A DNA stretch of 64,000 nt from an uncultured Candidatus Saccharibacteria bacterium (GTDB lineage Bacteria; Patescibacteriota; Minisyncoccia; Phycocordibacterales; UBA1006), in NCBI GenBank assembly GCA_964464735.1, contig CAYXKF010000001.1, positions 35,690 to 99,689 of the forward strand. The letters are read 5' to 3'. Each line of letters starts with the position of its first letter. Position 1 is the first letter of the stretch. The translations under genes and the position numbers were made by a program. Shown here in pieces: positions 5,722 through 61,661 of this stretch. The notes under the pieces are model-generated. The model worked only from the letters and a program-made list of their open reading frames with translations, was not told the DNA's origin and searched no databases.

Positions 5722-5792
5722 AGCGGGGTGGAGTAATGGTAGCTCACCGGGCTCATAACCCGGGGGTGCCCGTTCGAATCGGGCCCCCGCAA
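5722..5792 (+). tRNA. tRNA-fMet (initiator, anticodon CAU)
   Basis: Cloverleaf folded by hand. The anticodon loop is CUCAUAA. Three consecutive G:C pairs at the base of the anticodon stem (GGG/CCC), A11:U24, and a mismatched 1:72 pair (A.A) are initiator hallmarks. The T-loop is TTCGAAT. CCA is not encoded. Confidence 0.8.
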
Positions 5793-5845
5793 CACGATCA
5801 TATTTTCTCGTTGATTTTTTGCCCCGCTTAGGGTATCTTTCTCGT

Positions 5846-5922
5846 GTCGGGGTAGCTCAGTTGGTTAGAGCGTAGCACTCATAAAGCTAAGGTCGGCGGT
5901 TCGATCCCGCCCCTCGACACCA
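5846..5922 (+). tRNA. tRNA with CAU anticodon (elongator Met or lysidine-modified Ile2); 3' CCA encoded
   Basis: Hand-folded with acceptor GTCGGGG/CCTCGAC containing one G.U pair, D-arm GCTCAGTTGGTTAGAGC, anticodon loop CTCATAA, T-arm GGCGGTTCGATCCCGCC, and ACCA at the 3' end. Confidence 0.8.
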
Positions 5923-33901: not shown

Positions 33902-35281
33902 ATGGGCAAGCTCTCGACATTTCAATTAATACTGGGCGGCGTCTTTGTTGCTTTTATTATCATTGGATTTTTATATTTCACATCGGCGGGCAAAAAAAAT
34001 GCCAACGCGCCAAAAGGGCAATACAGCGGTACGGTCACTATTTGGAGCATCATTCCGCGCGAACTTATCCAGGCACCGATTGCAAAATTCCAAGCTGACA
34101 ACGAAGCGGTGCGCATCACGTACCGGCAAATTAACGAAAGCGAAATCACGGCCGAAGTCATTAACGCCTTAGCGCAAGGCACCGGGCCCGACATTTTGAT
34201 GTTTCCAGCCGAACGGTTAATCCAGCTGCGCGGTATCTTATACCCGATTTCATATGCCAACATTTCGCAGGACGTATTCATGCAAAAATTTATCGATGGC
34301 GCGTCGGTCTTAATGCAACCCGAAGGCATTTATGGGCTGCCCGTTTTGGTTGACCCGATGGTCATGTATGTGAACCGTGATATTTTAAATAGTACATTTA
34401 TTGCAAACGCTCCGCAGTATTGGGACGAATTTCCTAATTTGGTACCAAATGTTACGCAAAAAAATAATGCCGGACTTATTACCCGTTCGACTGTGGCACT
34501 TGGCTTTCCGTTAAATATCAGTCATGTTGCCGACATTATGACCGCGCTTTTCATGCAGTTGGGCAGCACCATGGTTGCAACGGATGATTTTGGCGAAACG
34601 GGCGGGGGGATCCAATACCGCCTTGCACTTCGTGGGCCGGGCAAATTTAGTGCGCGCCCTATTGCCGACGCGTTTGAATACGCAGTTGCATTTTCGGATC
34701 CGGCAAAAACAACGTATACCTGGTCGGCAGGGCTTCCATTGTCACGCGACTATTTTGTGGGCGACCGGTTGCTTGCATACTTTGGATACGCCAGCGAATA
34801 TGGCATACTGCGTTCGCTTAATCCAAACCTAAACTTTTCGATCGAAATGCTGCCGCAGATGCGCGTCAGTTCAACCAAGGCGACTTTTGGAAAAATCTAT
34901 GCCTTGGGCATGACCAAAAAATCGCAAAATGTCGCTGCGTCATTCGCGCTGATGAACGCGATCGTGCAGCCTGATGTCATGCAGCCGGTTTATACTTCCA
35001 TGGGCTTGCCGCCGGTATTCAAGTCATCGCTTGCCGCCATGCCTAATGATCATCGTTCGACTGTCACGCGGCAGTCCGCCCTTATTACCAAGTCGTGGCT
35101 TAACCCGCTTGTTGAAGCATACGATACTACCGTTATTCAAAGTTTGCAGCGTGTCCTTTCGGGAGAATTGTCGCCTGCGCAAGTTGCCAACGAAATGGAC
35201 ACCGCACTTGCTCCGCTGTTCGATAGTGTTAACGAACAAAATGCTAAAAATGCTTCGGCTGCCGCCGCGGCAAAACAATAA
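33902..35281 (+). CDS. ABC transporter substrate-binding protein (family 1, sugar-type), orphan
   Basis: N-terminal anchor, then the periplasmic-binding-protein pattern (TIWSIIPRELIQAPIAKFQADN...GTGPDILMFPAERL). No permease or ATPase genes are adjacent. Confidence 0.75.
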   Translation: MGKLSTFQLILGGVFVAFIIIGFLYFTSAGKKNANAPKGQYSGTVTIWSIIPRELIQAPIAKFQADNEAVRITYRQINESEITAEVINALAQGTGPDILMFPAERLIQLRGILYPISYANISQDVFMQKFIDGASVLMQPEGIYGLPVLVDPMVMYVNRDILNSTFIANAPQYWDEFPNLVPNVTQKNNAGLITRSTVALGFPLNISHVADIMTALFMQLGSTMVATDDFGETGGGIQYRLALRGPGKFSARPIADAFEYAVAFSDPAKTTYTWSAGLPLSRDYFVGDRLLAYFGYASEYGILRSLNPNLNFSIEMLPQMRVSSTKATFGKIYALGMTKKSQNVAASFALMNAIVQPDVMQPVYTSMGLPPVFKSSLAAMPNDHRSTVTRQSALITKSWLNPLVEAYDTTVIQSLQRVLSGELSPAQVANEMDTALAPLFDSVNEQNAKNASAAAAAKQ

Positions 35282-35299: not shown

Positions 35300-36592
35300 A
35301 TGTGGTATAATGCTTCTTACATGAATTTTGCCCAGGCCAAGACTATTACTGGCTATAACCAATTTTTTAAATGCATCATTATTGCGATCGCTTTTTTTAC
35401 TTGTTTCTTTTCGATCGCCTTGGTGTCGCATGCCGAAGGGGGAATTGTTTTTACTGGTGTCACCTTAAAACCCGATACCGCCGCGGCAAACGGAACGTAT
35501 ATTTTGTCAGGCAATCTTAAGCTGCTTAGTGGCAGTACAAATGGCACAAGCGCGCCCGTAGGCTTAACGCTTGTCGACTTGTCGACTGGCGGTACACAGA
35601 CGTCAGCGCTTGGTACATATACGGTTGGTGCCGCGGCTCCTTTTTCGGTCAAAGGGCTTACGGGTACTTCGTATCGCTTTAATCATTCAATAAATAACCA
35701 GACTGTTGCAGCGTTTACTATTATTTCGTACACCGGTCCTGCGGCAATGGCGCTTACCCCAACATATTCTGACGTAAAGCTCGAGGCCGATTCTGTCAAT
35801 CAGGGTAAATATATTTTGTCAGGAAAAATGAATCTAGCCGGCGGCACCGGTACTTTTCAGTTTACCTCGATCGAAACAAAGGGAACAGGTGAGACTGCTT
35901 TTGCGTCAAAAGCACAAACTGGATCACCAAGCTTTGGTGCTACAGCTGCGTTCAGTGTAAATAATTTAACTAAAACTTCGTACGAATGGTATCCAAAAGT
36001 TACCTATAATAATCAGGTGTATACTGTGGGAACTCCACAGACAATATCGGTTGGGGGAACGAACCAAGGTACCAATCCGCCAAACCAAAACCAGCAAAAT
36101 TCCCAAAATAATAATCAAAGTAATCCGACAACGCAAAATACCACACAAACGACTGTGGCCGGTGGCAACGGACTTTTTGATGAATTTAAAAATGGCCTTG
36201 TTCACTGCGGCCGAAAAGTTGCCGACCCGGCGCGGGGTATTACGACAAAGCCGTGCACATTTGACGACTTAATTATTTTGGCAAGCCGCATTATCCGCTT
36301 TGCGATGTATCTTATTGTAGTTGCAGCAGCGATCGTCGTTATATGGATCGGTTGGATTTACTTATCGGCAGGTGGCAATACCGAAAAGGTCGCCAAGGCA
36401 AAACATGCGGCAACCAGTTGGGTTATTGGCGTCGTGTTGGTCATGTGCGCTTGGCTAATTGTCAGTTTCGTATTGCGAAGTTTCTTAAGCAAAGAGTATC
36501 TTCAAAAGCATCCGAACGCATTATTGCTTGAAAAAGTGGATGACGCATCGACACAAAATAAATCATTACAAGACATTATTACCGGACAATAA
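35300..36592 (+). CDS. secreted beta-rich protein fused to a C-terminal VirB2/TrbC-like pilin hairpin
   Basis: Signal peptide, a ~300-aa Thr/Gly/Ser-rich repeat region, a Q/N-rich linker, then FDDLIILASRIIRFAMYLIVVAAAIVVIWIGWIYLSAGGNTEKVAKAKHAATSWVIGVVLVMCAWLIVSFVL. That tail is two TM helices separated by a short charged loop. The start may instead be the ATG at 35321. Confidence 0.6.
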   Translation: MWYNASYMNFAQAKTITGYNQFFKCIIIAIAFFTCFFSIALVSHAEGGIVFTGVTLKPDTAAANGTYILSGNLKLLSGSTNGTSAPVGLTLVDLSTGGTQTSALGTYTVGAAAPFSVKGLTGTSYRFNHSINNQTVAAFTIISYTGPAAMALTPTYSDVKLEADSVNQGKYILSGKMNLAGGTGTFQFTSIETKGTGETAFASKAQTGSPSFGATAAFSVNNLTKTSYEWYPKVTYNNQVYTVGTPQTISVGGTNQGTNPPNQNQQNSQNNNQSNPTTQNTTQTTVAGGNGLFDEFKNGLVHCGRKVADPARGITTKPCTFDDLIILASRIIRFAMYLIVVAAAIVVIWIGWIYLSAGGNTEKVAKAKHAATSWVIGVVLVMCAWLIVSFVLRSFLSKEYLQKHPNALLLEKVDDASTQNKSLQDIITGQ

Positions 36593-42425: not shown

Positions 42426-43895
42426 TTATTCAAAGTGTGATGCGATTAATGTTTCGCCACCGTTAAATTCGATAGGCGATTCGACCAGTAAGCCACATTC
42501 GGTTTCGGCTCGCGCAACGTCGGCTTCAATTTTGCCAAGCTTGATCATGGTTATTTTACCTTTGCCAATGCGTTCGTCGCCGCGTTCAATCTGAATTAGT
42601 TCGTCTTGTTTAAAAAGCCCGTCAGTAATACGGCAACCCAACACGGTACCGCTTTTAGTTGCACTAAATACCTTAAGCACTTTTGCCTTGCCAGTGATAA
42701 TTTCAACCGGTTCGCGCACGGTGCGCTTTTCACGTTCGGCCTCAAGCCATTCAGTCAATTTGTAAATGATGCTAAATTGCTCGACGGTCGCATATTGGCG
42801 TTCGTCCATAGTAAGCACGCGGCTGTCTTCTTTGACGTTAAAACCAAAAACGATCGAGCCGGTGCTGCTAGCTGCTAGTTGTATGTCAGATTCGTTAATG
42901 TCGCCGATGCCAGTCTTGATGATCTTAAACAAAATGTATTCGTTGCTGCGCTTTTTAATTTCGCTTTCAATTGCTTCGATGCTGCCAAACGTATCGCCTT
43001 TGATGATAATTGGTACGACTAAGCGCTTGTCGTTTTCATCGACTTGTTGCTGTACTTTTTGGCTGACCAATTCGCGATACACACGCAGTGCATCCTCGGC
43101 CTCTTTTTTAGTAGCGTAGGTTTCAAAGTGCGCACCAACGCGGGGAAGTGCGTCAAAACCAATTACTGTTACTGGGCTTGACGCGCTTGGCTCGATAATT
43201 GCCTTGCCTAAAAAGTTTTCCAAAATGCGTGTGGTCGACATATTGCCCTCGATCACGATAAAGCCGCCTTTGGGGATGATTCCTTGCTTAATAATAAGTG
43301 TTGCTGAAATGCCACGCTTTTTATCAAGGTGTGATTCGATCACGAAGCCTGATGCGGGAACGGCAGGGTCATGGGTAAAGTTTTCCATTTCGGCTGAAAG
43401 CAAGATCATGTCAAGTAATTCACTAATGCCTTCGCCGGTTTTTGCCGAGACATTAATGGCGGCCACAGTTCCGCCGTAGCCTTCGACAAACACGCCATGC
43501 TCCATAAGATCAGCTTTTACTTTTTCAGGGTTTGCGTTTGGTTTATCGATTTTGTTGACGGCAACAATAAAAGGAACTTTTTTATCCAAAATAGTATTGA
43601 TCGCTTCAACTGTTTGCGCCTTAACCGAATCTTCGGCCGATACAACCAATATTGCAATATCGGCAACGTTCGCACCGCGGTAGCGCATGTTGGTAAATGC
43701 TGCGTGACCTGGCGTATCAATAAAAGTAATTTTTTCGCCTGCATGTTCAACTTCGTATGCCGAGATGTGCTGCGTAATGCCGCCCGCTTCGGTCGCGACC
43801 ACATTTGATTTGCGAATATAATCAAGAAGCGTCGACTTTCCGTGGTCGACGTGTCCCATGATTACTACAACTGGTGATCGCTTAATGGTGCTCAT
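42426..43895 (-). CDS. infB: translation initiation factor IF-2 (short form lacking N-terminal domains)
   Basis: The G domain has VVVIMGHVDHGKSTLLD, DTPGHAAF and NKID. 489 aa. Confidence 0.95.
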   Translation of the reverse strand: MSTIKRSPVVVIMGHVDHGKSTLLDYIRKSNVVATEAGGITQHISAYEVEHAGEKITFIDTPGHAAFTNMRYRGANVADIAILVVSAEDSVKAQTVEAINTILDKKVPFIVAVNKIDKPNANPEKVKADLMEHGVFVEGYGGTVAAINVSAKTGEGISELLDMILLSAEMENFTHDPAVPASGFVIESHLDKKRGISATLIIKQGIIPKGGFIVIEGNMSTTRILENFLGKAIIEPSASSPVTVIGFDALPRVGAHFETYATKKEAEDALRVYRELVSQKVQQQVDENDKRLVVPIIIKGDTFGSIEAIESEIKKRSNEYILFKIIKTGIGDINESDIQLAASSTGSIVFGFNVKEDSRVLTMDERQYATVEQFSIIYKLTEWLEAEREKRTVREPVEIITGKAKVLKVFSATKSGTVLGCRITDGLFKQDELIQIERGDERIGKGKITMIKLGKIEADVARAETECGLLVESPIEFNGGETLIASHFE

Positions 43896-49710: not shown

Positions 49711-49713
49711 TTG

Positions 49714-50104
49714 TGGAGATGGAGGGTATCGAGCCCTCGTACATGCATGATAACCATGCAAATCTACGTGCGTGTTTTGTTTAGGTGCCTTTCGGCATTC
49801 CGCTGTATCTTGTCATTAAACAAACAAACAAGGCACAGTATGCTGCACTGATACGATGTTGCTTCGTGCAGAATAAGCAAAAAAGTACTTAGAAATTATC
49901 AAACACGGCCTGATATGTCTAAGTGCATATCAGCGTGCTCCAAGCGCTTAGGCTCGGGCGAAAGAAGCGAATCCAAAAAATGGAGACGCTACCGCAGTTT
50001 TAGATTTTGCACTAAAATGCTGTACGCGTATTTTGACGCGCGCGACGTACGCGAGCGGCACGCATTGCATGATTATGATCATCCATGGCATTCAATACAT
50101 CCCC
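49714..50104 (-). ncRNA. ssrA: candidate tmRNA (ssrA), divergent
   Basis: It lies 88 nt downstream of smpB on the same strand. The 5' GGGGATG pairs with the 3' CATCTCC to form a 7-bp acceptor stem with G3.U70 (the Ala identity element), discriminator A, and a T-arm GAGGG-CTCGATA-CCCTC. 5' and 3' proximal segments can pair to form P2 (CATGCA/TGCATG). The internal reading frame is UAGU-GCA AAA UCU AAA ACU GCG GUA GCG UCU CCA UUU UUU GGA UUC GCU UCU UUC GCC CGA GCC UAA, giving the tag AKSKTAVASPFFGFASFARA. The total length is 391 nt. The ORF-track ORF at 49915..50208 on the opposite strand is probably spurious. Confidence 0.6.
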
Positions 50105-50191: not shown

Positions 50192-50641
50192 TCAAAGAAT
50201 TTCTTTGATTGAACGCTTGTCGGCCTTTTTCTTAAGGCTTTGGCGCTTATCAAAAAGCTTTTTCTTTTTTCCTAATCCGATGCGCAGTCGCATCCGATTA
50301 CGGTTTAAATATACCATTAAAGGTATAAGTGTCAACGATCCGCTTTTACGCTCGACTAACAATTTTTCAATTTCGCCTTTGTTTAGCAAGATTTTTCGCT
50401 TACGGTACGGCTGGTGCTTACTGGCCTTATTGTTTGGCTGATAAGGCGGAATAAACGATTCGGCGAGCCATGCTTCGCCCTGTTTAGAAATATGAATATG
50501 TGAACCCTCAAGCGACCCATGGCTGGCGCGCAGTGATTTTACCTCTGACCCGGTCAGCAAAAGCCCCGCTTCAACAGTGTCCTTGACATCATAAAACCGT
50601 TCGGCATTTTTGTTTTTTACCAATGGCTGCATGGCAAGCAT
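50192..50641 (-). CDS. smpB: SsrA-binding protein
   Basis: 149 aa. ERFYDVKDTVEAGLLLTGSEVKSLR and the C-terminal basic tail are typical of SmpB. Confidence 0.9.
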   Translation of the reverse strand: MLAMQPLVKNKNAERFYDVKDTVEAGLLLTGSEVKSLRASHGSLEGSHIHISKQGEAWLAESFIPPYQPNNKASKHQPYRKRKILLNKGEIEKLLVERKSGSLTLIPLMVYLNRNRMRLRIGLGKKKKLFDKRQSLKKKADKRSIKEIL

Positions 50642-50718: not shown

Positions 50719-52599
50719 ATGAAGCAAAAGGCTCCAAACCCTAAAAAAATATTGCGCCAATTTATGGCACATATTATATCGCTGGTGATTTTGATCATCT
50801 GCGTCGGGTTTTTATATGCGGGCCTAAGCTATAGCAAAAAAAAGCAGGCGACCGAAGCAATCAGCGTTTCGCAAGTGGCGCAACTCGTAAAAGAAGGGCA
50901 AGTAAAAGCCATGACCCTTCGTGGCGAAAAAATTGAACTAGCATTGCAAGACGGCACCAAAAAGACTGCTAAAAAAGAAAACGACGCATCGCTGTCAGAA
51001 ACATTGGTTGCGTACGGTGTAACGCCAACGCAATTACAGGTGGTTGATTTTGAAATTCAAAACGATCGTGGGTTTGGATATATCTTTTTAAATATCTTGC
51101 CCATCCTGGCGCCTATTTTATTTTTTGTGATTTTGATTTGGTTTTTGTCGGGCCAAATGAAAGGTGGTGGCATGAAGGCCTTTAGTTTTGGGCAGTCTCG
51201 CGCACGCGTAACTGACCCCGATAAGCAAAACGTTACCTTTGATGACGTTGCCGGAAACGAAGTTGCAAAAATCGAACTTGCCGAAGTCGTCGACTTTTTA
51301 AAGAATCCAAAAAAATTCTTAGACATTGGTGCCACAATTCCTAAGGGCGTATTGTTAATGGGTGCACCCGGAACGGGCAAGACATTACTTGCGCGTGCGG
51401 TTGCAGGCGAAGCAAAGGTGCCTTTTTTTCACTTGTCGGGATCCGAATTTGTCGAAATGTTTGTTGGCGTGGGTGCGTCGCGTGTACGTGATTTGTTTGA
51501 CCAAGCAAAAGCAAATGCCCCGGCAATTATCTTTATCGACGAAATTGATGCCGTAGGGCGTCATCGTGGTGTTGGTATTGGCGGCGGAAACGATGAGCGC
51601 GAGCAAACCTTAAATCAAATTTTAGTCGAGATGGATGGCTTTGAACCGACCGAAAAAATTATCGTGATTGCTGCAACAAACCGAAGCGACGTACTTGACC
51701 CGGCATTGCTTCGCCCAGGGCGATTTGACCGTCGCGTCATTTTAGATTTGCCTGACCGCAAAGAACGCTTGGCGATTTTGCAGGTGCATGCACGCAAAAA
51801 GCAGTTAGGCGAAGATATTAACCTTGAAGTTATTGCCGAACGCACGCCAGGATTTTCGGGTGCCGACTTGCAATCGCTAATGAATGAGGCTGCAATATTT
51901 GCCGCACGCGAAAACCGTAAAAAAATAGCACAATATGATATTATTCGTTCAATCGAAAAAGTGATGATCGGCCCTGAACGCAAATCGCATTTGCATAGCG
52001 AAAAAGAACGACGTATTGTTGCATACCACGAAGCAGGCCATGCCATTTTGGCGTCATTGCTTGAACATGCCGATCCGGTGCACAAAGTATCAATTGTTGC
52101 GCGTGGATACACGGGAGGGTTTACGATGAAGCTTCCAATCGAGGAACGCAAATTGCAATCGAAAAATGAATTTTTGGATGATATTGTCGTTTCGATGGGT
52201 GGCTATGTTGCCGAAAAAGCAGTGTTTGGCGATATTACAACCGGACCTTCAAACGACTTACAGGTTGCATCGCGCATGGCATACAGTATGGTGACCCGTT
52301 GGGGTATGTCTGACAAAATTGGGCCAATTGCGCTTGAGGCCGCCGACGGCAGTTCACTGTCCGAACATGGTTCGGCATTTAGTAACCACACAGGTACGCT
52401 TATCGCCGAAGAAGTTTCAAAAATCATTCATGAATCTTTGGCACGCGCACAGCAGCTAGTGCAAGATAATCGTGCAGTTTTGGATGCTGTTGCTGATACT
52501 TTGCTTGAGAAAGAAACTATCGAACAAGACGAATACAACGCCCTTATTGAACGCTTTGGCATTATTGCTAAAAAGCGCAGTGAAGAAACAAAAACTTAG
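50719..52599 (+). CDS. ftsH: ATP-dependent zinc metalloprotease FtsH
   Basis: Two N-terminal TM helices, AAA+ Walker [12 protein letters not shown], and the Zn-binding HEAGHAI. 626 aa. Confidence 0.95.
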
Positions 52600-55695: not shown

Positions 55696-56376
55696 ATGGC
55701 ACGAGGCAAACTAATTGTATTTGATGGCAATGATGGATCTGGCAAGCAGACCCAGATGCTTAAGATTGTTGAGCGGCTAGAAAAAGAAGGGCACAAAGTC
55801 CGCACTTTGGACTTTCCTCAGTATGATAATAACTTCTTTGGACACTTGATTGGCGAAGGACAAACGGGTGCGTTTGGCAAATGGACCGAACTTCCGTCAA
55901 AGTTAATTTCGATTACCTATGCTGCCGACAGGTTTGAAAGCAAAGACCAAATTGAATCATGGTTAAGCCAGGGTTATACTGTGTTTCTTGATCGCTACGT
56001 TTCGGCAAACCAAATTCATCAGGGCGGAAAAATTCATGATGTGTTAGAGCGCCGTGACTTTTTAGGCTGGCTTTCAAAAATGGAATACGAGGTGTTTAAG
56101 ATTCCTAAGCCAAGCCACACGTTTTATTTTGACGTATCAATCAATACTTCTTTTGAAAACCTCAAAAAGAAAAAGCCCGAACGGTATAAAGCGGGACAAG
56201 AAGACCAGACCGAAAACGACCGCACCTACTTAGAAAACTCACGCGAATGTGCGCTATGGATGGCATCGCAAAATAATACCTGGACGCTTATTAATTGTAT
56301 GGACGAGGAATCAATGCGCAGTATCGAAGATATCCACGAAGAGGTGTATGAAAACTTAACAAAAAACCTGCTGTAA
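55696..56376 (+). CDS. tmk: thymidylate kinase family protein
   Basis: P-loop IVFDGNDGSGKQTQ, DRYVSANQIHQGG (matching the Tmk DRH..S..AYQGG), and the LID region. Confidence 0.65.
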   Translation: MARGKLIVFDGNDGSGKQTQMLKIVERLEKEGHKVRTLDFPQYDNNFFGHLIGEGQTGAFGKWTELPSKLISITYAADRFESKDQIESWLSQGYTVFLDRYVSANQIHQGGKIHDVLERRDFLGWLSKMEYEVFKIPKPSHTFYFDVSINTSFENLKKKKPERYKAGQEDQTENDRTYLENSRECALWMASQNNTWTLINCMDEESMRSIEDIHEEVYENLTKNLL

Positions 56377-56391
56377 AAAGCAGGTTTTTTG
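56362..56391. terminator. bidirectional Rho-independent terminator overlapping the tmk stop (also serves minus-strand tRNA)
   Basis: aaaaaa-CCTGCT-gtaaaa-AGCAGG-tttttt. Confidence 0.65.
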
Positions 56392-56398
56392 TTTGCTG

Positions 56399-56471
56399 TG
56401 GGTGTGCATGGACTCGAACCATGGACCACCGAGGTATAAGCTCGGCGCTCTACCAACTGAGCTACACACCC
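56399..56471 (-). tRNA. tRNA-Ile with UAU anticodon (AUA decoder), unusual
   Basis: The reverse complement folds as GGGTGTG-TA-GCTCAGTTGGTAGAGC-G-CCGAG-CTTATAC-CTCGG-TGGTC-CATGGTTCGAGTCCATG-CACACCC with discriminator A. The anticodon loop CUUAUAC gives anticodon UAU. Confidence 0.75.
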
Positions 56472-56501: not shown

Positions 56502-58670
56502 TTACTCAAAATGCACTTTGTGCTTTTGTTTTTCGATATGTTTTTTAAGCTCGGGATACTGTTTTAACTCGATATCGTTTTCAGCAATTGCTTTTGCGGC
56601 GTCGCGGGCTGCTTGCACCAGCTTTAAATTTTTTAAGGCTTCCATGCCGGTGTCGGTAAGACCGGATTGTTCGGCGCCAACCAAGTCGCCGGCGCCGCGT
56701 AGGCTTAAATCAAGTTCGGCAAGTTCGAAACCGTTTTTTGCAGTTACGAACGCACGTAACCGATCTTTTGATTTATCCGAATTTGCTTCGGTAAACAAAT
56801 AGCAATACGGCTGATGACTACTTCTCATTACACGTCCACGCAATTGGTGCAGCTGCGATAATCCAAAGCGTTCACTTCCTTCGATAATAATTGCCGTAGC
56901 GTTGGGTACGTTAACACCTACTTCGACAACCGATGTCGAAACTAATATTTGTGTTTTGCCACTGTAAAAATCGTTTAAGACCGACTCTTTTTTCTTTGCA
57001 AGCATTTTGCTGTGCATGACATCTATGCTGAATTCGGGAAAGATATTTTTTTTCAGATGTGCGGCTTCTGCAGTGACCGATTTTGCGATCAGCGCCTTCG
57101 CGCTATCTGGATCTGGTGCATCGATGCGCGGACAAATTACATATGCTTGACGACCTTCATTAATAAGGCTGCGAATATGTTCATATACCTCACTGCGTTT
57201 GTCTGGAGTTACCACGGTCGTTTGAACAGCTTTTCGTCCCGGTGGAAGTTCGTCTAAAATCGTTAGGTCAAGATCACCATACATGGTTAGTGCAAGCGTA
57301 CGAGGAATCGGCGTCGCGGTCATTGATAAAAAATGGGGCACTAGCTTGCTTCGCTTTGCTAAGGCCATACGTTGTGCCGTTCCAAAGCGATGCTGCTCGT
57401 CAACGATTGCCAGTGCCAAATGTTTAAACTCAAGCGTTTTTGCGATAAGCGCATGAGTACCCACGACAATGGGAATCTCGCCATTTGCAATCCATTTTTT
57501 TAATTGCGCACGCGAAATGTCTGTCCATGTTTTTCCATACACTTTGCTGGGAAACTTACGACATGACTTACCGGTAATTAAGCCAACCTGCATGCCGTAG
57601 TCTTTAAAAAACTTAATAAAGTTTTCAAACAATTGCGTTGCCAAGACTTCGGTCGGTGCCATAATGGCAACTTGCAATGTCCCAAAGTTTTGCCCTTTAG
57701 GACGCGTTTCGACAGCTGCTTTTGATGCCAGTGCGGCGATAAGTGTTTTACCCGATCCGACGTCGCCTTCAAGCAAGCGCATCATCGGGGCGCCCGATGC
57801 CATATCTTTGGTAATTTCGCCAATGGCTTTTTCTTGGCCCTTAGTTAAGTTAAAGCCCAAGTCAGCCGCGTGTTCTTTCAGGTCACTCATTTTCGAAGCG
57901 ATGATAAAGCTTTCTTCTTGCCGATATTTTTCACGTTCAATTGCACGGCCCAATTGCACGCTAAACATATTTTCAAATGCAAAGCGCTTTTTGGCCGCTT
58001 CGGCGTGTTTTTGGTTTTTGGGCGCATGCATCCAAACAATCGCACTTTGGCGGTTGGGAAGGCTGTATGTTTTTAGTAATTCGTCAGGCAAAATTTCGGG
58101 CACCTGTTCGTGCAATTTGTTTCGCAGTAACCGGGTAATCGAATGTTGCAGCCATGCCGACGTAACACCCTTGGTTTCGCTGTAGCGCGGATAGGCAAAC
58201 AGTTCGTCGCCGGTTTCGCTGTCGTGAAAAAGGGATTCTTTGTGCGCGTCGATCGGAAGCGCGGGAATCTTTTCGATACTTGGGTTAGTGATCGACCGCT
58301 TGCCGTTATATACGCTTACGATGCCATGCAAGTGCACGGGCGTGCCTTCAGTATATGTTTTTCCAATATACGGCTGATGAAACCAAATTAAGTCGATCGT
58401 ATCGCCCGCAATATCGACAAGCTTTGCGCTGGTAATCGGTGTTTTTGATTTGTATGTTTTTTTAACCTCGACGTCGGTAATGGTGCCAAATAAGGTTGCA
58501 TCTTCGCCTTCGGTTAAATTGATGATGCTTGTTGCTTGTGTAAACGAAGTGTAGCGAACCGGCGGATATAGCAAAAGATCTTCAAGCGTCTCGAGCCGAA
58601 GTTTTTTTAAGCCCACCTTTTGAGCAGGTGTCAATCGAAAGGTAGACTCAATTTTATCACTGATATGCAT
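56502..58670 (-). CDS. recG: ATP-dependent DNA helicase RecG
   Basis: Wedge domain, helicase motifs LLEGDVGSGKTLIA and VDEQHRFG. 722 aa. Confidence 0.9.
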   Translation of the reverse strand: MHISDKIESTFRLTPAQKVGLKKLRLETLEDLLLYPPVRYTSFTQATSIINLTEGEDATLFGTITDVEVKKTYKSKTPITSAKLVDIAGDTIDLIWFHQPYIGKTYTEGTPVHLHGIVSVYNGKRSITNPSIEKIPALPIDAHKESLFHDSETGDELFAYPRYSETKGVTSAWLQHSITRLLRNKLHEQVPEILPDELLKTYSLPNRQSAIVWMHAPKNQKHAEAAKKRFAFENMFSVQLGRAIEREKYRQEESFIIASKMSDLKEHAADLGFNLTKGQEKAIGEITKDMASGAPMMRLLEGDVGSGKTLIAALASKAAVETRPKGQNFGTLQVAIMAPTEVLATQLFENFIKFFKDYGMQVGLITGKSCRKFPSKVYGKTWTDISRAQLKKWIANGEIPIVVGTHALIAKTLEFKHLALAIVDEQHRFGTAQRMALAKRSKLVPHFLSMTATPIPRTLALTMYGDLDLTILDELPPGRKAVQTTVVTPDKRSEVYEHIRSLINEGRQAYVICPRIDAPDPDSAKALIAKSVTAEAAHLKKNIFPEFSIDVMHSKMLAKKKESVLNDFYSGKTQILVSTSVVEVGVNVPNATAIIIEGSERFGLSQLHQLRGRVMRSSHQPYCYLFTEANSDKSKDRLRAFVTAKNGFELAELDLSLRGAGDLVGAEQSGLTDTGMEALKNLKLVQAARDAAKAIAENDIELKQYPELKKHIEKQKHKVHFE

Positions 58671-60337: not shown

Positions 60338-61144
60338 TTAAAATACTTGTTCTTTTTCTCCTTCGGGAATAACACGTTCAATCACGAACGTGTTATTTTC
60401 GTATCGGGCTTTGGTGATCTTTATGCGCTTACCGTTCGAATCGAAATAAAAAACTCCCGGCCAGCCAAAGTATGCGCGGTATTTTCGCCATTTGGTTTCG
60501 TCTGAATCAGTCGCTAAAAGTTCGCCGTCTTTTTTTTCGATCTTAGCGCAGTAGGTTGCGTCGGCGTCGTTTTGCGGTGTAAGCGTAAAATCTCCGGTTG
60601 CAAGTTTCGGAAACATTTCGATCAATGATTTACTTGCCTCGGTGCTCATCCACGCTTTTAAGTCTTCGGCAGTTTCGTTTCCATTCAAGGGATACTCTTT
60701 CTGAACGGCGATCGGACCTTTATCAAGTTCAAACTCCATTTTTTGAATCGTGAATCCGGTTTTTTCATCGCCCGCCAAAATGACCGCTTCGTTGCAACTA
60801 GCGCCTCGCCAACGAGGTAGCAGCGAGTAATGCACGTTAAAGCATCCATGTTTTGGAATATCCAACAACCACTGCGGAAATATTTTTCCGTAGGCAACAA
60901 CAATAAAAAAATCCCATTGTGTGCTTCGCAAAAACTCCTCGGCGTCTTTTAATTTTTCGGGTTGATGTACAGAAATATTCAAAGACTCGGCTAATACTTT
61001 AACAGGCGAGGGGGTCAGTATTTGTTTTCGTCCAACCGGCCGGTCAGGATTAGTAAAAACCGCATTTGGCGTATGGCCTGCGTCGATGAGCATTTTTAAA
61101 ACCGTTTCGGCGCTTTCGGGCGTGCCAAAAAATAGCCAGTTCAT
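60338..61144 (-). CDS. fmt: methionyl-tRNA formyltransferase (short form)
   Basis: MNWLFFGTPESAETVL, HYSLLPRWRGAS. 268 aa. It is convergent with the hpf-PPIase-NUDIX genes and adjacent to def. Confidence 0.9.
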   Translation of the reverse strand: MNWLFFGTPESAETVLKMLIDAGHTPNAVFTNPDRPVGRKQILTPSPVKVLAESLNISVHQPEKLKDAEEFLRSTQWDFFIVVAYGKIFPQWLLDIPKHGCFNVHYSLLPRWRGASCNEAVILAGDEKTGFTIQKMEFELDKGPIAVQKEYPLNGNETAEDLKAWMSTEASKSLIEMFPKLATGDFTLTPQNDADATYCAKIEKKDGELLATDSDETKWRKYRAYFGWPGVFYFDSNGKRIKITKARYENNTFVIERVIPEGEKEQVF

Positions 61145-61145
61145 A

Positions 61146-61661
61146 TTATTCTAAAGGAATCTTAGTGGTGCGCTTTTCGGCTTTCCAAATGTCGTCGGCC
61201 TTGTCGGTAAATAACACGCCGTCCAAGTGATCAAGTTCGTGCTGGATCACACGTGCAAGCAATGCGCCTGTACCGCGTTCGAACTTTTCGCCGTGTTCGT
61301 CATAGGCGACAACGGTAACTTGGGCAGGGCGGCGTACATGGCCGTAGACGCCGCGGATCGAAAGGCAGCCTTCCTCGAATGAAACCTTTTTAGAGCTTTT
61401 TTTGGTAATGATCGGATTAATAAACACGGTCGGACGAATGCTGTCTTCTTTTTTATAGACCGAATCGGCAATGACAAAAATGCGGGTCGTTTCGCCAATT
61501 TGCGGGGAAGCAAGGCCAATGCCGTCCTTGGTGTTTTTAAGCGTATCCTTAAGGTTTGCGATAATAGCCTGAATTTCTGCTGATTTAATATCTTTTACCA
61601 GAACCTCTTTTGCCTTGGTGCGCAATACCGGATCGCCGATTTGTACGATTTCTTTTTGCAT
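61146..61661 (-). CDS. def: peptide deformylase
   Basis: GIGLASPQIG, EGCLSI, HELDHLDG. Sits 2 nt upstream of fmt. Confidence 0.9.
   Translation of the reverse strand: MQKEIVQIGDPVLRTKAKEVLVKDIKSAEIQAIIANLKDTLKNTKDGIGLASPQIGETTRIFVIADSVYKKEDSIRPTVFINPIITKKSSKKVSFEEGCLSIRGVYGHVRRPAQVTVVAYDEHGEKFERGTGALLARVIQHELDHLDGVLFTDKADDIWKAEKRTTKIPLE

Follow-up and report, generated by a model that had tools for sequence, protein, structure and literature searches.

[quoted passage not shown] Diwan and Agashe found TilS in 98% of the genomes of their survey, the title of a 2025 study calls it genetically conserved, and the bacterial species recorded with tRNA-Ile(UAU) numbered nine in 2013 and 19 in 2014. 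Among the closest described systems, the tRNA-Ile2(UAU) of Mycoplasma mobile has an unmodified U34 and t6A37, binds AUA and not AUG on its own ribosome while reading both codons on Escherichia coli ribosomes, and is served by an IleRS with an arginine at the position of E. coli W905 (Taniguchi et al. 2013). According to the same study, Bifidobacterium and Neorickettsia lack tilS and carry tRNA-Ile(TAT) together with a eukaryote/archaea-like IleRS, and both AUA systems are present in Lactobacillus casei and Cyanothece. Taniguchi et al. 2013 also counted 371 distinct TAT tDNAs in metagenomes and proposed UAU decoding as the ancestral state. Mycoplasmas have tilS between pth and ftsH, and it was there that the loss of the gene from M. 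mobile was diagnosed; Southlakia epibionticum, a saccharibacterium, has an essential tilS directly upstream of ftsH.

In the literature searched, no work was found that links lysidine or tilS with Patescibacteria or CPR, or that joins Parcubacteria with anticodon and isoleucine. The paper on RAAC4_OD1_1 (Kantor 2013) is silent in its main text on the UAU tRNA of this genome, and neither its supplement nor that of Nelson & Stegen 2015 holds anything on tilS or tRNA-Ile. The UAU mechanism itself is already known from M. mobile and Bifidobacterium; what is new in the locus described here is its breadth across a clade and the fixed linkage ftsH - tRNA-Ile(UAU) - recG.

A tRNA-Ile gene with a UAU anticodon

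The DNA analysed, referred to as the window, is a stretch of 64 kb with 43.6% G+C and the standard genetic code. It has these features at the tRNA locus:

56399..56471, minus strand: tRNA-Ile(UAU) gene (ARAGORN, Rfam, sequence, and covariation on homologues)
56358..56393, minus strand: intrinsic-terminator-like hairpin, 15 pairs followed by a T run (terminator scan and sequence)

ARAGORN calls a tRNA-Ile with the anticodon tat at position 34 (56398-56471, minus strand), and Rfam RF00005 matches 56399-56471 on the same strand over the full model with 74.5 bits (E 1.8e-14; threshold 29), the top tRNA score in the window. On the minus strand the gene reads GGGUGUG UA GCUC AGUUGGUA GAGC G CCGAG CUUAUAC CUCGG UGGUC CAUGG UUCGAGU CCAUG CACACCC A. 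It is 73 nt long, with a body of bacterial type, no intron, a discriminator A73 and no encoded CCA, and its canonical 7-nt anticodon loop CUUAUAC comprises U33, U34-A35-U36 and A37. The first-pass annotation, which had read a UAU anticodon in the loop CUUAUAC of a minus-strand tRNA with an Ile-like scaffold, is thereby borne out: ARAGORN and Rfam agree on the anticodon, and the body, with its A73, is conserved among homologues.

The terminator-like hairpin lies directly 3' of the tRNA and extends into the 3' end of the convergent tmk gene (55696-56376), so it may terminate transcription both ways. A strict promoter scan found no sigma-70 match near the tRNA. The first-pass annotation had also named a non-optimal cloverleaf as grounds for refutation. 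The minimum free energy (MFE) fold of the bare sequence is in fact an extended hairpin and not a cloverleaf, but the cloverleaf is upheld by the covariation described below; the MFE fold was therefore rejected as an argument against the tRNA, since comparative data override it. The gene is almost certainly a functional, AUA-decoding tRNA-Ile(UAU).

Affiliation and gene content of the window

The window encodes gyrA, ftsH, pyrG, gatA, a short IF-2, hisS, fmt, def, glyA, tmk, HPF, smpB and tmRNA. Named relatives of its FtsH, at 63-69% identity, come from Pacebacteria, Parcubacteria RAAC4_OD1_1, Nomurabacteria and Paceibacterota, which places the window within the Patescibacteria/CPR, among the Paceibacteria (Parcubacteria/OD1). 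At 80% nucleotide identity, L003 is the closest genome locus; it is labelled 'Candidatus Saccharibacteria'. This label, on L003 and on other TPA MAGs, was held to be unreliable because the named FtsH relatives are Parcubacteria/Paceibacteria, and also because a true saccharibacterium, Southlakia, has the arrangement tilS-ftsH.

Several other genes deserve mention. The IF-2 gene (42426-43895, minus strand) encodes 489 aa that match the IF-2 model from position 85, the typical N-terminal region being missing. A 430-aa protein with a C-terminal type IV secretion pilin domain, PF18895, is encoded at 35300-36592 (plus strand) and is preceded by a 459-aa, weakly solute-binding-protein-like ORF (33902-35281, plus strand); the two may be part of a Patescibacteria T4SS/conjugation-like apparatus. 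Among the relatives, the FtsH of RAAC4_OD1_1 (P0032; L190, 10001-11908) is named 'Lysyl-tRNA synthetase' at NCBI, which is a mis-annotation.

Conservation and covariation among relatives

The 41-nt core of tRNA-Ile(UAU), from the D arm to the variable loop, was searched in GTDB species-representative genomes and matched in 68 of them, mostly labelled Patescibacteria or CPR, some labelled 'bacterium' or 'uncultured bacterium' and one labelled Flavobacteriaceae. This last MAG (L022, JBLHIK010000014.1) carries a Patescibacteria-type tRNA-Ile(UAU) beside an ftsH 61% identical to that of the window, and the contig is probably a mis-binned CPR sequence. A looser tRNA pattern matched at least 120 metagenome contigs, and the core found no match in viral contigs. 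The carriers of homologues are all Patescibacteria, mostly labelled Parcubacteria or Paceibacteria. Together, the GTDB and metagenome homologues (the latter from at least 120 contigs) comprise 108 distinct 73-nt sequences, in which A73 is invariant.

Among these 108 sequences, compensatory changes occur in every stem pair left free by the search patterns except G53-C61, that is, in all acceptor-stem pairs, four T-stem pairs and the two pattern-free anticodon-stem pairs. In a set of 58 distinct homologues, 100% of the 1218 pair cells hold standard pairs, and both sides change in 13 of the 21 pairs. The covariation score is 0.504, compared with 0.127 in shuffles (0 of 500 reach 0.504), and sliding the register by 1-3 columns leaves only 32-50% of the cells paired. 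The poor pairing of shifted registers, together with the placement of tat at position 34 by ARAGORN, speaks against a different anticodon position, the other ground for refutation named at first pass.

In the pattern-retrieved loci, the search patterns prescribed the D arm and most of the anticodon arm, and the constancy of these parts in those sets is a consequence of this. Five loci picked by FtsH similarity alone (L190-L194), one of them from the 693-kb RAAC4_OD1_1 genome, provide an independent check: all five carry tRNA-Ile(tat) with the identical loop CUUAUAC, and in four the D loop is one base longer, so that the search patterns would have missed them. Position 34 had been left as Y in the looser pattern, and among the at least 120 metagenome matches listed it is U in 120 and C in none. 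An in-place switch from C34 to U34 was considered by seeking a CAU sibling of the same tRNA body, and the same listed matches contained no C34.

Overall, tRNA-Ile(UAU) was found in 192 of 193 related loci. The comparison with the tRNA sets of related Patescibacteria, recommended at first pass, gave this tRNA in every relative sampled; the accompanying description of a UAU anticodon as rare fits the literature but does not apply to this lineage. The gene is a genuine tRNA under strong purifying selection, and the UAU anticodon is fixed across the lineage.

A conserved ftsH - tRNA - recG block

The genes around the tRNA in the window are as follows:

56502..58670, minus strand: recG helicase gene (Pfam RecG_wedge, DEAD, Helicase_C and RecG_dom3_C)
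50719..52599, plus strand: ftsH (NCBIfam FtsH, 768 bits)
50192..50641, minus strand: smpB (Pfam SmpB, E 1.1e-40), divergent from ftsH
49711..50104, minus strand: tmRNA gene, ssrA (Rfam RF00023, 79.8 bits), downstream of smpB

The tRNA-Ile(UAU) gene lies in a conserved smpB / ftsH - tRNA - recG block. Where a near-complete ftsH is present (98 loci), the tRNA is found downstream of it, past the stop codon, in 97 (median distance 592 bp; at most 500 bp in 44 loci), and in all 47 loci holding both genes it lies between ftsH and recG. On its other side, ftsH has smpB no more than 1.5 kb upstream in 40 of the 67 loci whose upstream sequence spans 1 kb or more, and the tmRNA gene adjoins smpB in L190-L194. 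The orientation of the tRNA flips between lineages while its position between ftsH and recG is kept. In the window, the tRNA shares the strand of recG and follows the recG stop codon at a distance of 31 nt, whereas the tRNA of L003 (2722-2795) is inverted and converges on recG, 2 nt after its stop codon. In one MAG, two contigs (L038, JBAYUW010000003.1; L039, JBAYUW010000009.1) each carry a full smpB-ftsH-tRNA-Ile(UAU)-recG block, so that either the locus is duplicated or the bin contains two strains.

The site upstream of ftsH in the window is thus occupied by smpB and then the tmRNA gene, not by tilS. In this lineage the AUA decoder thus occupies the ftsH neighbourhood as tilS does in other bacteria, which may be a coincidence or a relic.

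The CAU tRNAs of the window

Two tRNA genes in the window have a CAU anticodon:

5722..5793, plus strand: initiator tRNA-fMet(CAU) (ARAGORN, sequence, and the discriminators of Silva et al. 2006)
5846..5922, plus strand: elongator tRNA-Met(CAU) (same sources)

The first of these has A11-U24, G12-C23 and three G-C pairs closing the anticodon stem; it carries an A1.A72 mismatch in place of the usual bacterial C1.A72, and its CCA is not encoded. The formylation and deformylase genes fmt and def are located at 60338-61661 in the window. The second has an encoded CCA and shows C3-G70, G4-C69 and G5.U68. Since tRNA-Ile2(CAU) is marked by G3/A3 or C70/U70 and by C4-G69 and C5-G68 (Silva et al. 2006), the second tRNA bears no Ile2 marks, and its assignment as Ile2(CAU) was ruled out by this elongator-Met pattern. 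The first-pass annotation had described the pair as an initiator and an elongator-like tRNA, and the discriminators of Silva et al. 2006 confirm them as fMet and Met. Both are clustered with tRNA-Asp, and PMX_810_sub, a Paceibacteria MAG whose tRNA(cat) genes number exactly two, has the same Met-Met-Asp cluster.

A further unusual tRNA, tRNA-Ser(ACU) with an A-starting anticodon, is absent from the window and present in relatives: L190 (15676-15763), L191 (19828-19917), L192 (15613-15700) and L193 (20797-20884), all on the minus strand, as well as L031 and L053. This tRNA-Ser(ACU) combines G73 with the long variable arm of type II and adjoins a normal tRNA-Ser(GCU). Apart from Arg(ACG), A34 tRNAs are very rare in bacteria, and tRNADB-CE has only 3 for Ser. 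The tadA gene is seemingly missing from at least one Paceibacteria MAG.

Search for tilS

No PP-loop motif (SGGxDS) was found in the ORFs of the window, and a looser motif scan of the window and 194 related loci (1.445 Mb) gave no match. A TilS profile HMM built from the catalytic domains of three solved TilS structures likewise retrieved nothing from these 1.445 Mb (best E = 0.49). Nor is tilS present upstream of any of the 67 related ftsH genes for which 1 kb or more of the preceding sequence is available, and in L190-L194 the 10 kb on either side of ftsH contain no PF01171 according to precomputed Pfam annotation. With respect to the canonical TilS / tRNA-Ile2(CAU) system, the window holds neither an Ile2-marked CAU tRNA nor a TilS match.

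The annotation table of PMX_810_sub, which is complete, has no K04075 (tilS). One gene of this MAG, PMX_810_sub_00091, is labelled 'tRNA(Ile)-lysidine synthase'; this label was rejected because the gene lacks K04075, matches an N-acetyl-sugar amidotransferase best and belongs to a glycan gene cluster. In the same table tsaD is present, and mnmE, mnmG and tadA are absent. PMX_810_sub is an incomplete MAG without ftsH, smpB and recG and shows no AUA decoder at all, probably because the part of the genome with these three genes is missing from it. Across the material sampled, namely the 64-kb window, 194 related loci and one MAG annotation, this lineage is probably without TilS.

Usage and meaning of AUA

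The inspection of AUA codon usage suggested at first pass showed that AUA is in regular use: the window contains 226 ATA codons, corresponding to 11.8 per 1000 codons and 15.6% of its Ile codons, and the residues aligned to ATA in related proteins are Ile-like. The meaning of the codon was assessed comparatively, not by proteomics, with 167 orthologues (88 FtsH and 79 RecG) and the window's own copies. In these orthologues ATA makes up 2067 of 8797 Ile codons, and the residues aligned to it are I 0.50, V 0.17, L 0.15 and M 0.03, not distinguishable from those aligned to ATC (0.52/0.16/0.15/0.03 in the same order). ATA therefore aligns with Ile/Val/Leu as ATT and ATC do, whereas the ATG profile differs. 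By these alignments, AUA is a frequently used isoleucine codon in this group and requires an efficient decoder.

IleRS type and proposed decoding of AUA

A search for long ORFs with HIGH and KMSKS motifs found no ileS in the window or in any related locus. In the annotation tables, complete for PMX_810_sub and truncated for Minisyncoccus archaeiphilus, the IleRS of both has PF00133, PF08264 and PF19302, and the type-1 zinc finger is not annotated. We take PF19302 to be the type-2 IleRS C-terminus, and PF06827 is presumably the type-1 IleRS zinc finger. The presence of PF19302 in these two other Paceibacteria points to a Bifidobacterium-like route, with a type-2 IleRS that would tolerate U34. 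The IleRS of Southlakia matches eukaryote-type structural templates (6LDK) and appears type-2-like, yet tilS is kept and essential in this organism, so the IleRS type alone does not imply tilS loss. In addition, the PMX_810_sub IleRS has a histidine-phosphatase domain; histidine-phosphatase (GpmB-like) domains occur in the CPR IleRS of PMX_810_sub and of SR1 (Kantor 2013), and Prokka mislabels that IleRS as GpmB.

We put the probability that tRNA-Ile(UAU) decodes AUA in a genome without TilS at roughly three in four. The suggestion made at first pass, that the genome may decode AUA without lysidine if the second CAU tRNA is elongator Met, is supported. Under the proposed mechanism, the minor tRNA-Ile2(UAU) would decode AUA by direct U34-A pairing, most likely as the sole AUA decoder and as a replacement for tRNA-Ile2(CAU) and TilS, with both tilS and tRNA-Ile(CAU) predicted to be absent from the whole genome. 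Charging would be performed by a type-2 (eukaryote-like) IleRS, able to accept U34 unlike the E. coli-type enzyme. A37 would carry t6A, and U34 would have little or no modification, given that the group appears to lack the MnmE/MnmG pathway. Misreading of AUG would be curbed by competition from tRNA-Met and/or by properties of the ribosome, as in M. mobile. The loop residue C38 differs from the A38 of E. coli tRNA-Ile, which is reportedly used as an identity element by the E. coli IleRS. Speculatively, the conserved C38 may matter for charging or for tuning codon binding.

It is conceivable, although we consider it unlikely, that the chemistry is different: U34, and perhaps U36, could be modified, either into pseudouridine, say, as happens in the psi-A-psi anticodon of eukaryotes, or by an enzyme not known so far, and the modification rather than the ribosome could restrict the tRNA to AUA and aid its recognition by IleRS. 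Such a scheme would be in keeping with the eukaryote-like type of the Paceibacteria IleRS, given that eukaryotic-type IleRS charges tRNA-Ile with psi-A-psi, and with the reading of both A and G by a bare U34 on E. coli ribosomes; the conserved C32/C38 loop could then be a recognition element for the modifying enzyme. However, M. mobile copes with an unmodified U34, mnmE and mnmG are absent from PMX_810_sub, and no candidate modifying enzyme was found here.

Redundant decoding, in which tilS and tRNA-Ile2(CAU) lie outside the window and the UAU tRNA is auxiliary, as in Lactobacillus casei/plantarum, Cyanothece and Ferrimonas, is improbable. Double systems do exist (Taniguchi et al. 2013), the 64-kb window is less than 10% of a typical CPR genome, and Southlakia, a patescibacterium of another class, has an essential tilS. 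Against this stand the lack of tilS beside ftsH in 67 relatives, at its site in Southlakia and the mycoplasmas, the lack of any TilS match in 1.445 Mb, and the lack of a C34 sibling among the at least 120 metagenome matches listed; PMX_810_sub, moreover, has no K04075 and only two CAU tRNAs. AUA also accounts for 15-24% of Ile codons, so the UAU tRNA must bear a heavy load.

That the gene is not a working Ile tRNA at all, being a pseudogene, a tRNA with another anticodon register or one for another amino acid (with AUA reassigned), is effectively refuted: the non-cloverleaf MFE fold and the missing sigma-70 match are outweighed by covariation that fits the cloverleaf perfectly and fails in shifted registers, by an invariant A73 in 108 distinct sequences, by the independent agreement of ARAGORN and Rfam on the anticodon, by the Ile/Val/Leu-like alignment of AUA, shared with AUC and AUU, and by the terminator 3' of the gene.

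Implications and comparison with known systems

Beyond the window itself, we lean slightly towards the wider view that a class-level lineage, the Paceibacteria/Parcubacteria, gave up the TilS-lysidine system and kept tRNA-Ile(UAU) between ftsH and recG throughout its radiation. One more UAU tRNA in a reduced genome would not surprise a tRNA specialist, but a class-wide replacement of TilS would be worth documenting. The Paceibacteria/Parcubacteria are among the most species-rich groups known, and if this view is true, UAU decoding would be common rather than a rarity and a major alternative to TilS within Bacteria. The failure of annotation pipelines to detect a conventional AUA decoder in Paceibacteria genomes would be accounted for as well. 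Some of the 371 TAT tDNAs of Taniguchi et al. 2013 are probably these tRNAs, and a whole class without TilS would bear on the proposal of ancestral UAU decoding made in that study. In addition, the lineage would offer many natural test cases, including the cultured Minisyncoccus, for the question of how a ribosome or a C32/C38 loop keeps U34 off AUG, and cultivable members in which U34 chemistry, recognition by type-2 IleRS and AUA/AUG discrimination could be measured.

Compared with the canonical system, in which the CAU anticodon of tRNA-Ile2 is converted to lysidine-AU by TilS, the outcome would be the same, with AUA read as Ile and AUG not read, and the ftsH neighbourhood is shared, since tilS lies there in many bacteria, including the patescibacterium Southlakia. 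However, the system described here has no C34, would need no lysidine step, and has no tilS in the sequence searched. Eukaryotic cytosolic tRNA-Ile(UAU), with its psi-A-psi anticodon, has the same type of anticodon and is charged by an IleRS of the class seemingly present in Paceibacteria as well, whereas an intron is needed for its pseudouridylation and the tRNA described here has no intron and a bacterial body.

The locus resembles that of M. mobile (Silva et al. 2006; Taniguchi et al. 2013) in its genomic UAU for AUA, reduced genome, A37 and A73, in the lack of tilS at its usual place by ftsH, and in the restriction of CAU to the fMet and Met tRNAs, here within the window. It differs in that M. 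mobile adapted a type-1 IleRS by a single Arg, while the Paceibacteria enzymes appear to be of type 2, and in that the change in M. mobile is recent and confined to one species, while here the tRNA is found in every relative sampled and is locked in an ftsH-tRNA-recG block. With Bifidobacterium and Neorickettsia, which belong to different phyla and whose systems are without biochemical characterisation, the lineage would share the full combination of tilS loss, tRNA-Ile(TAT) and a eukaryote-like IleRS.
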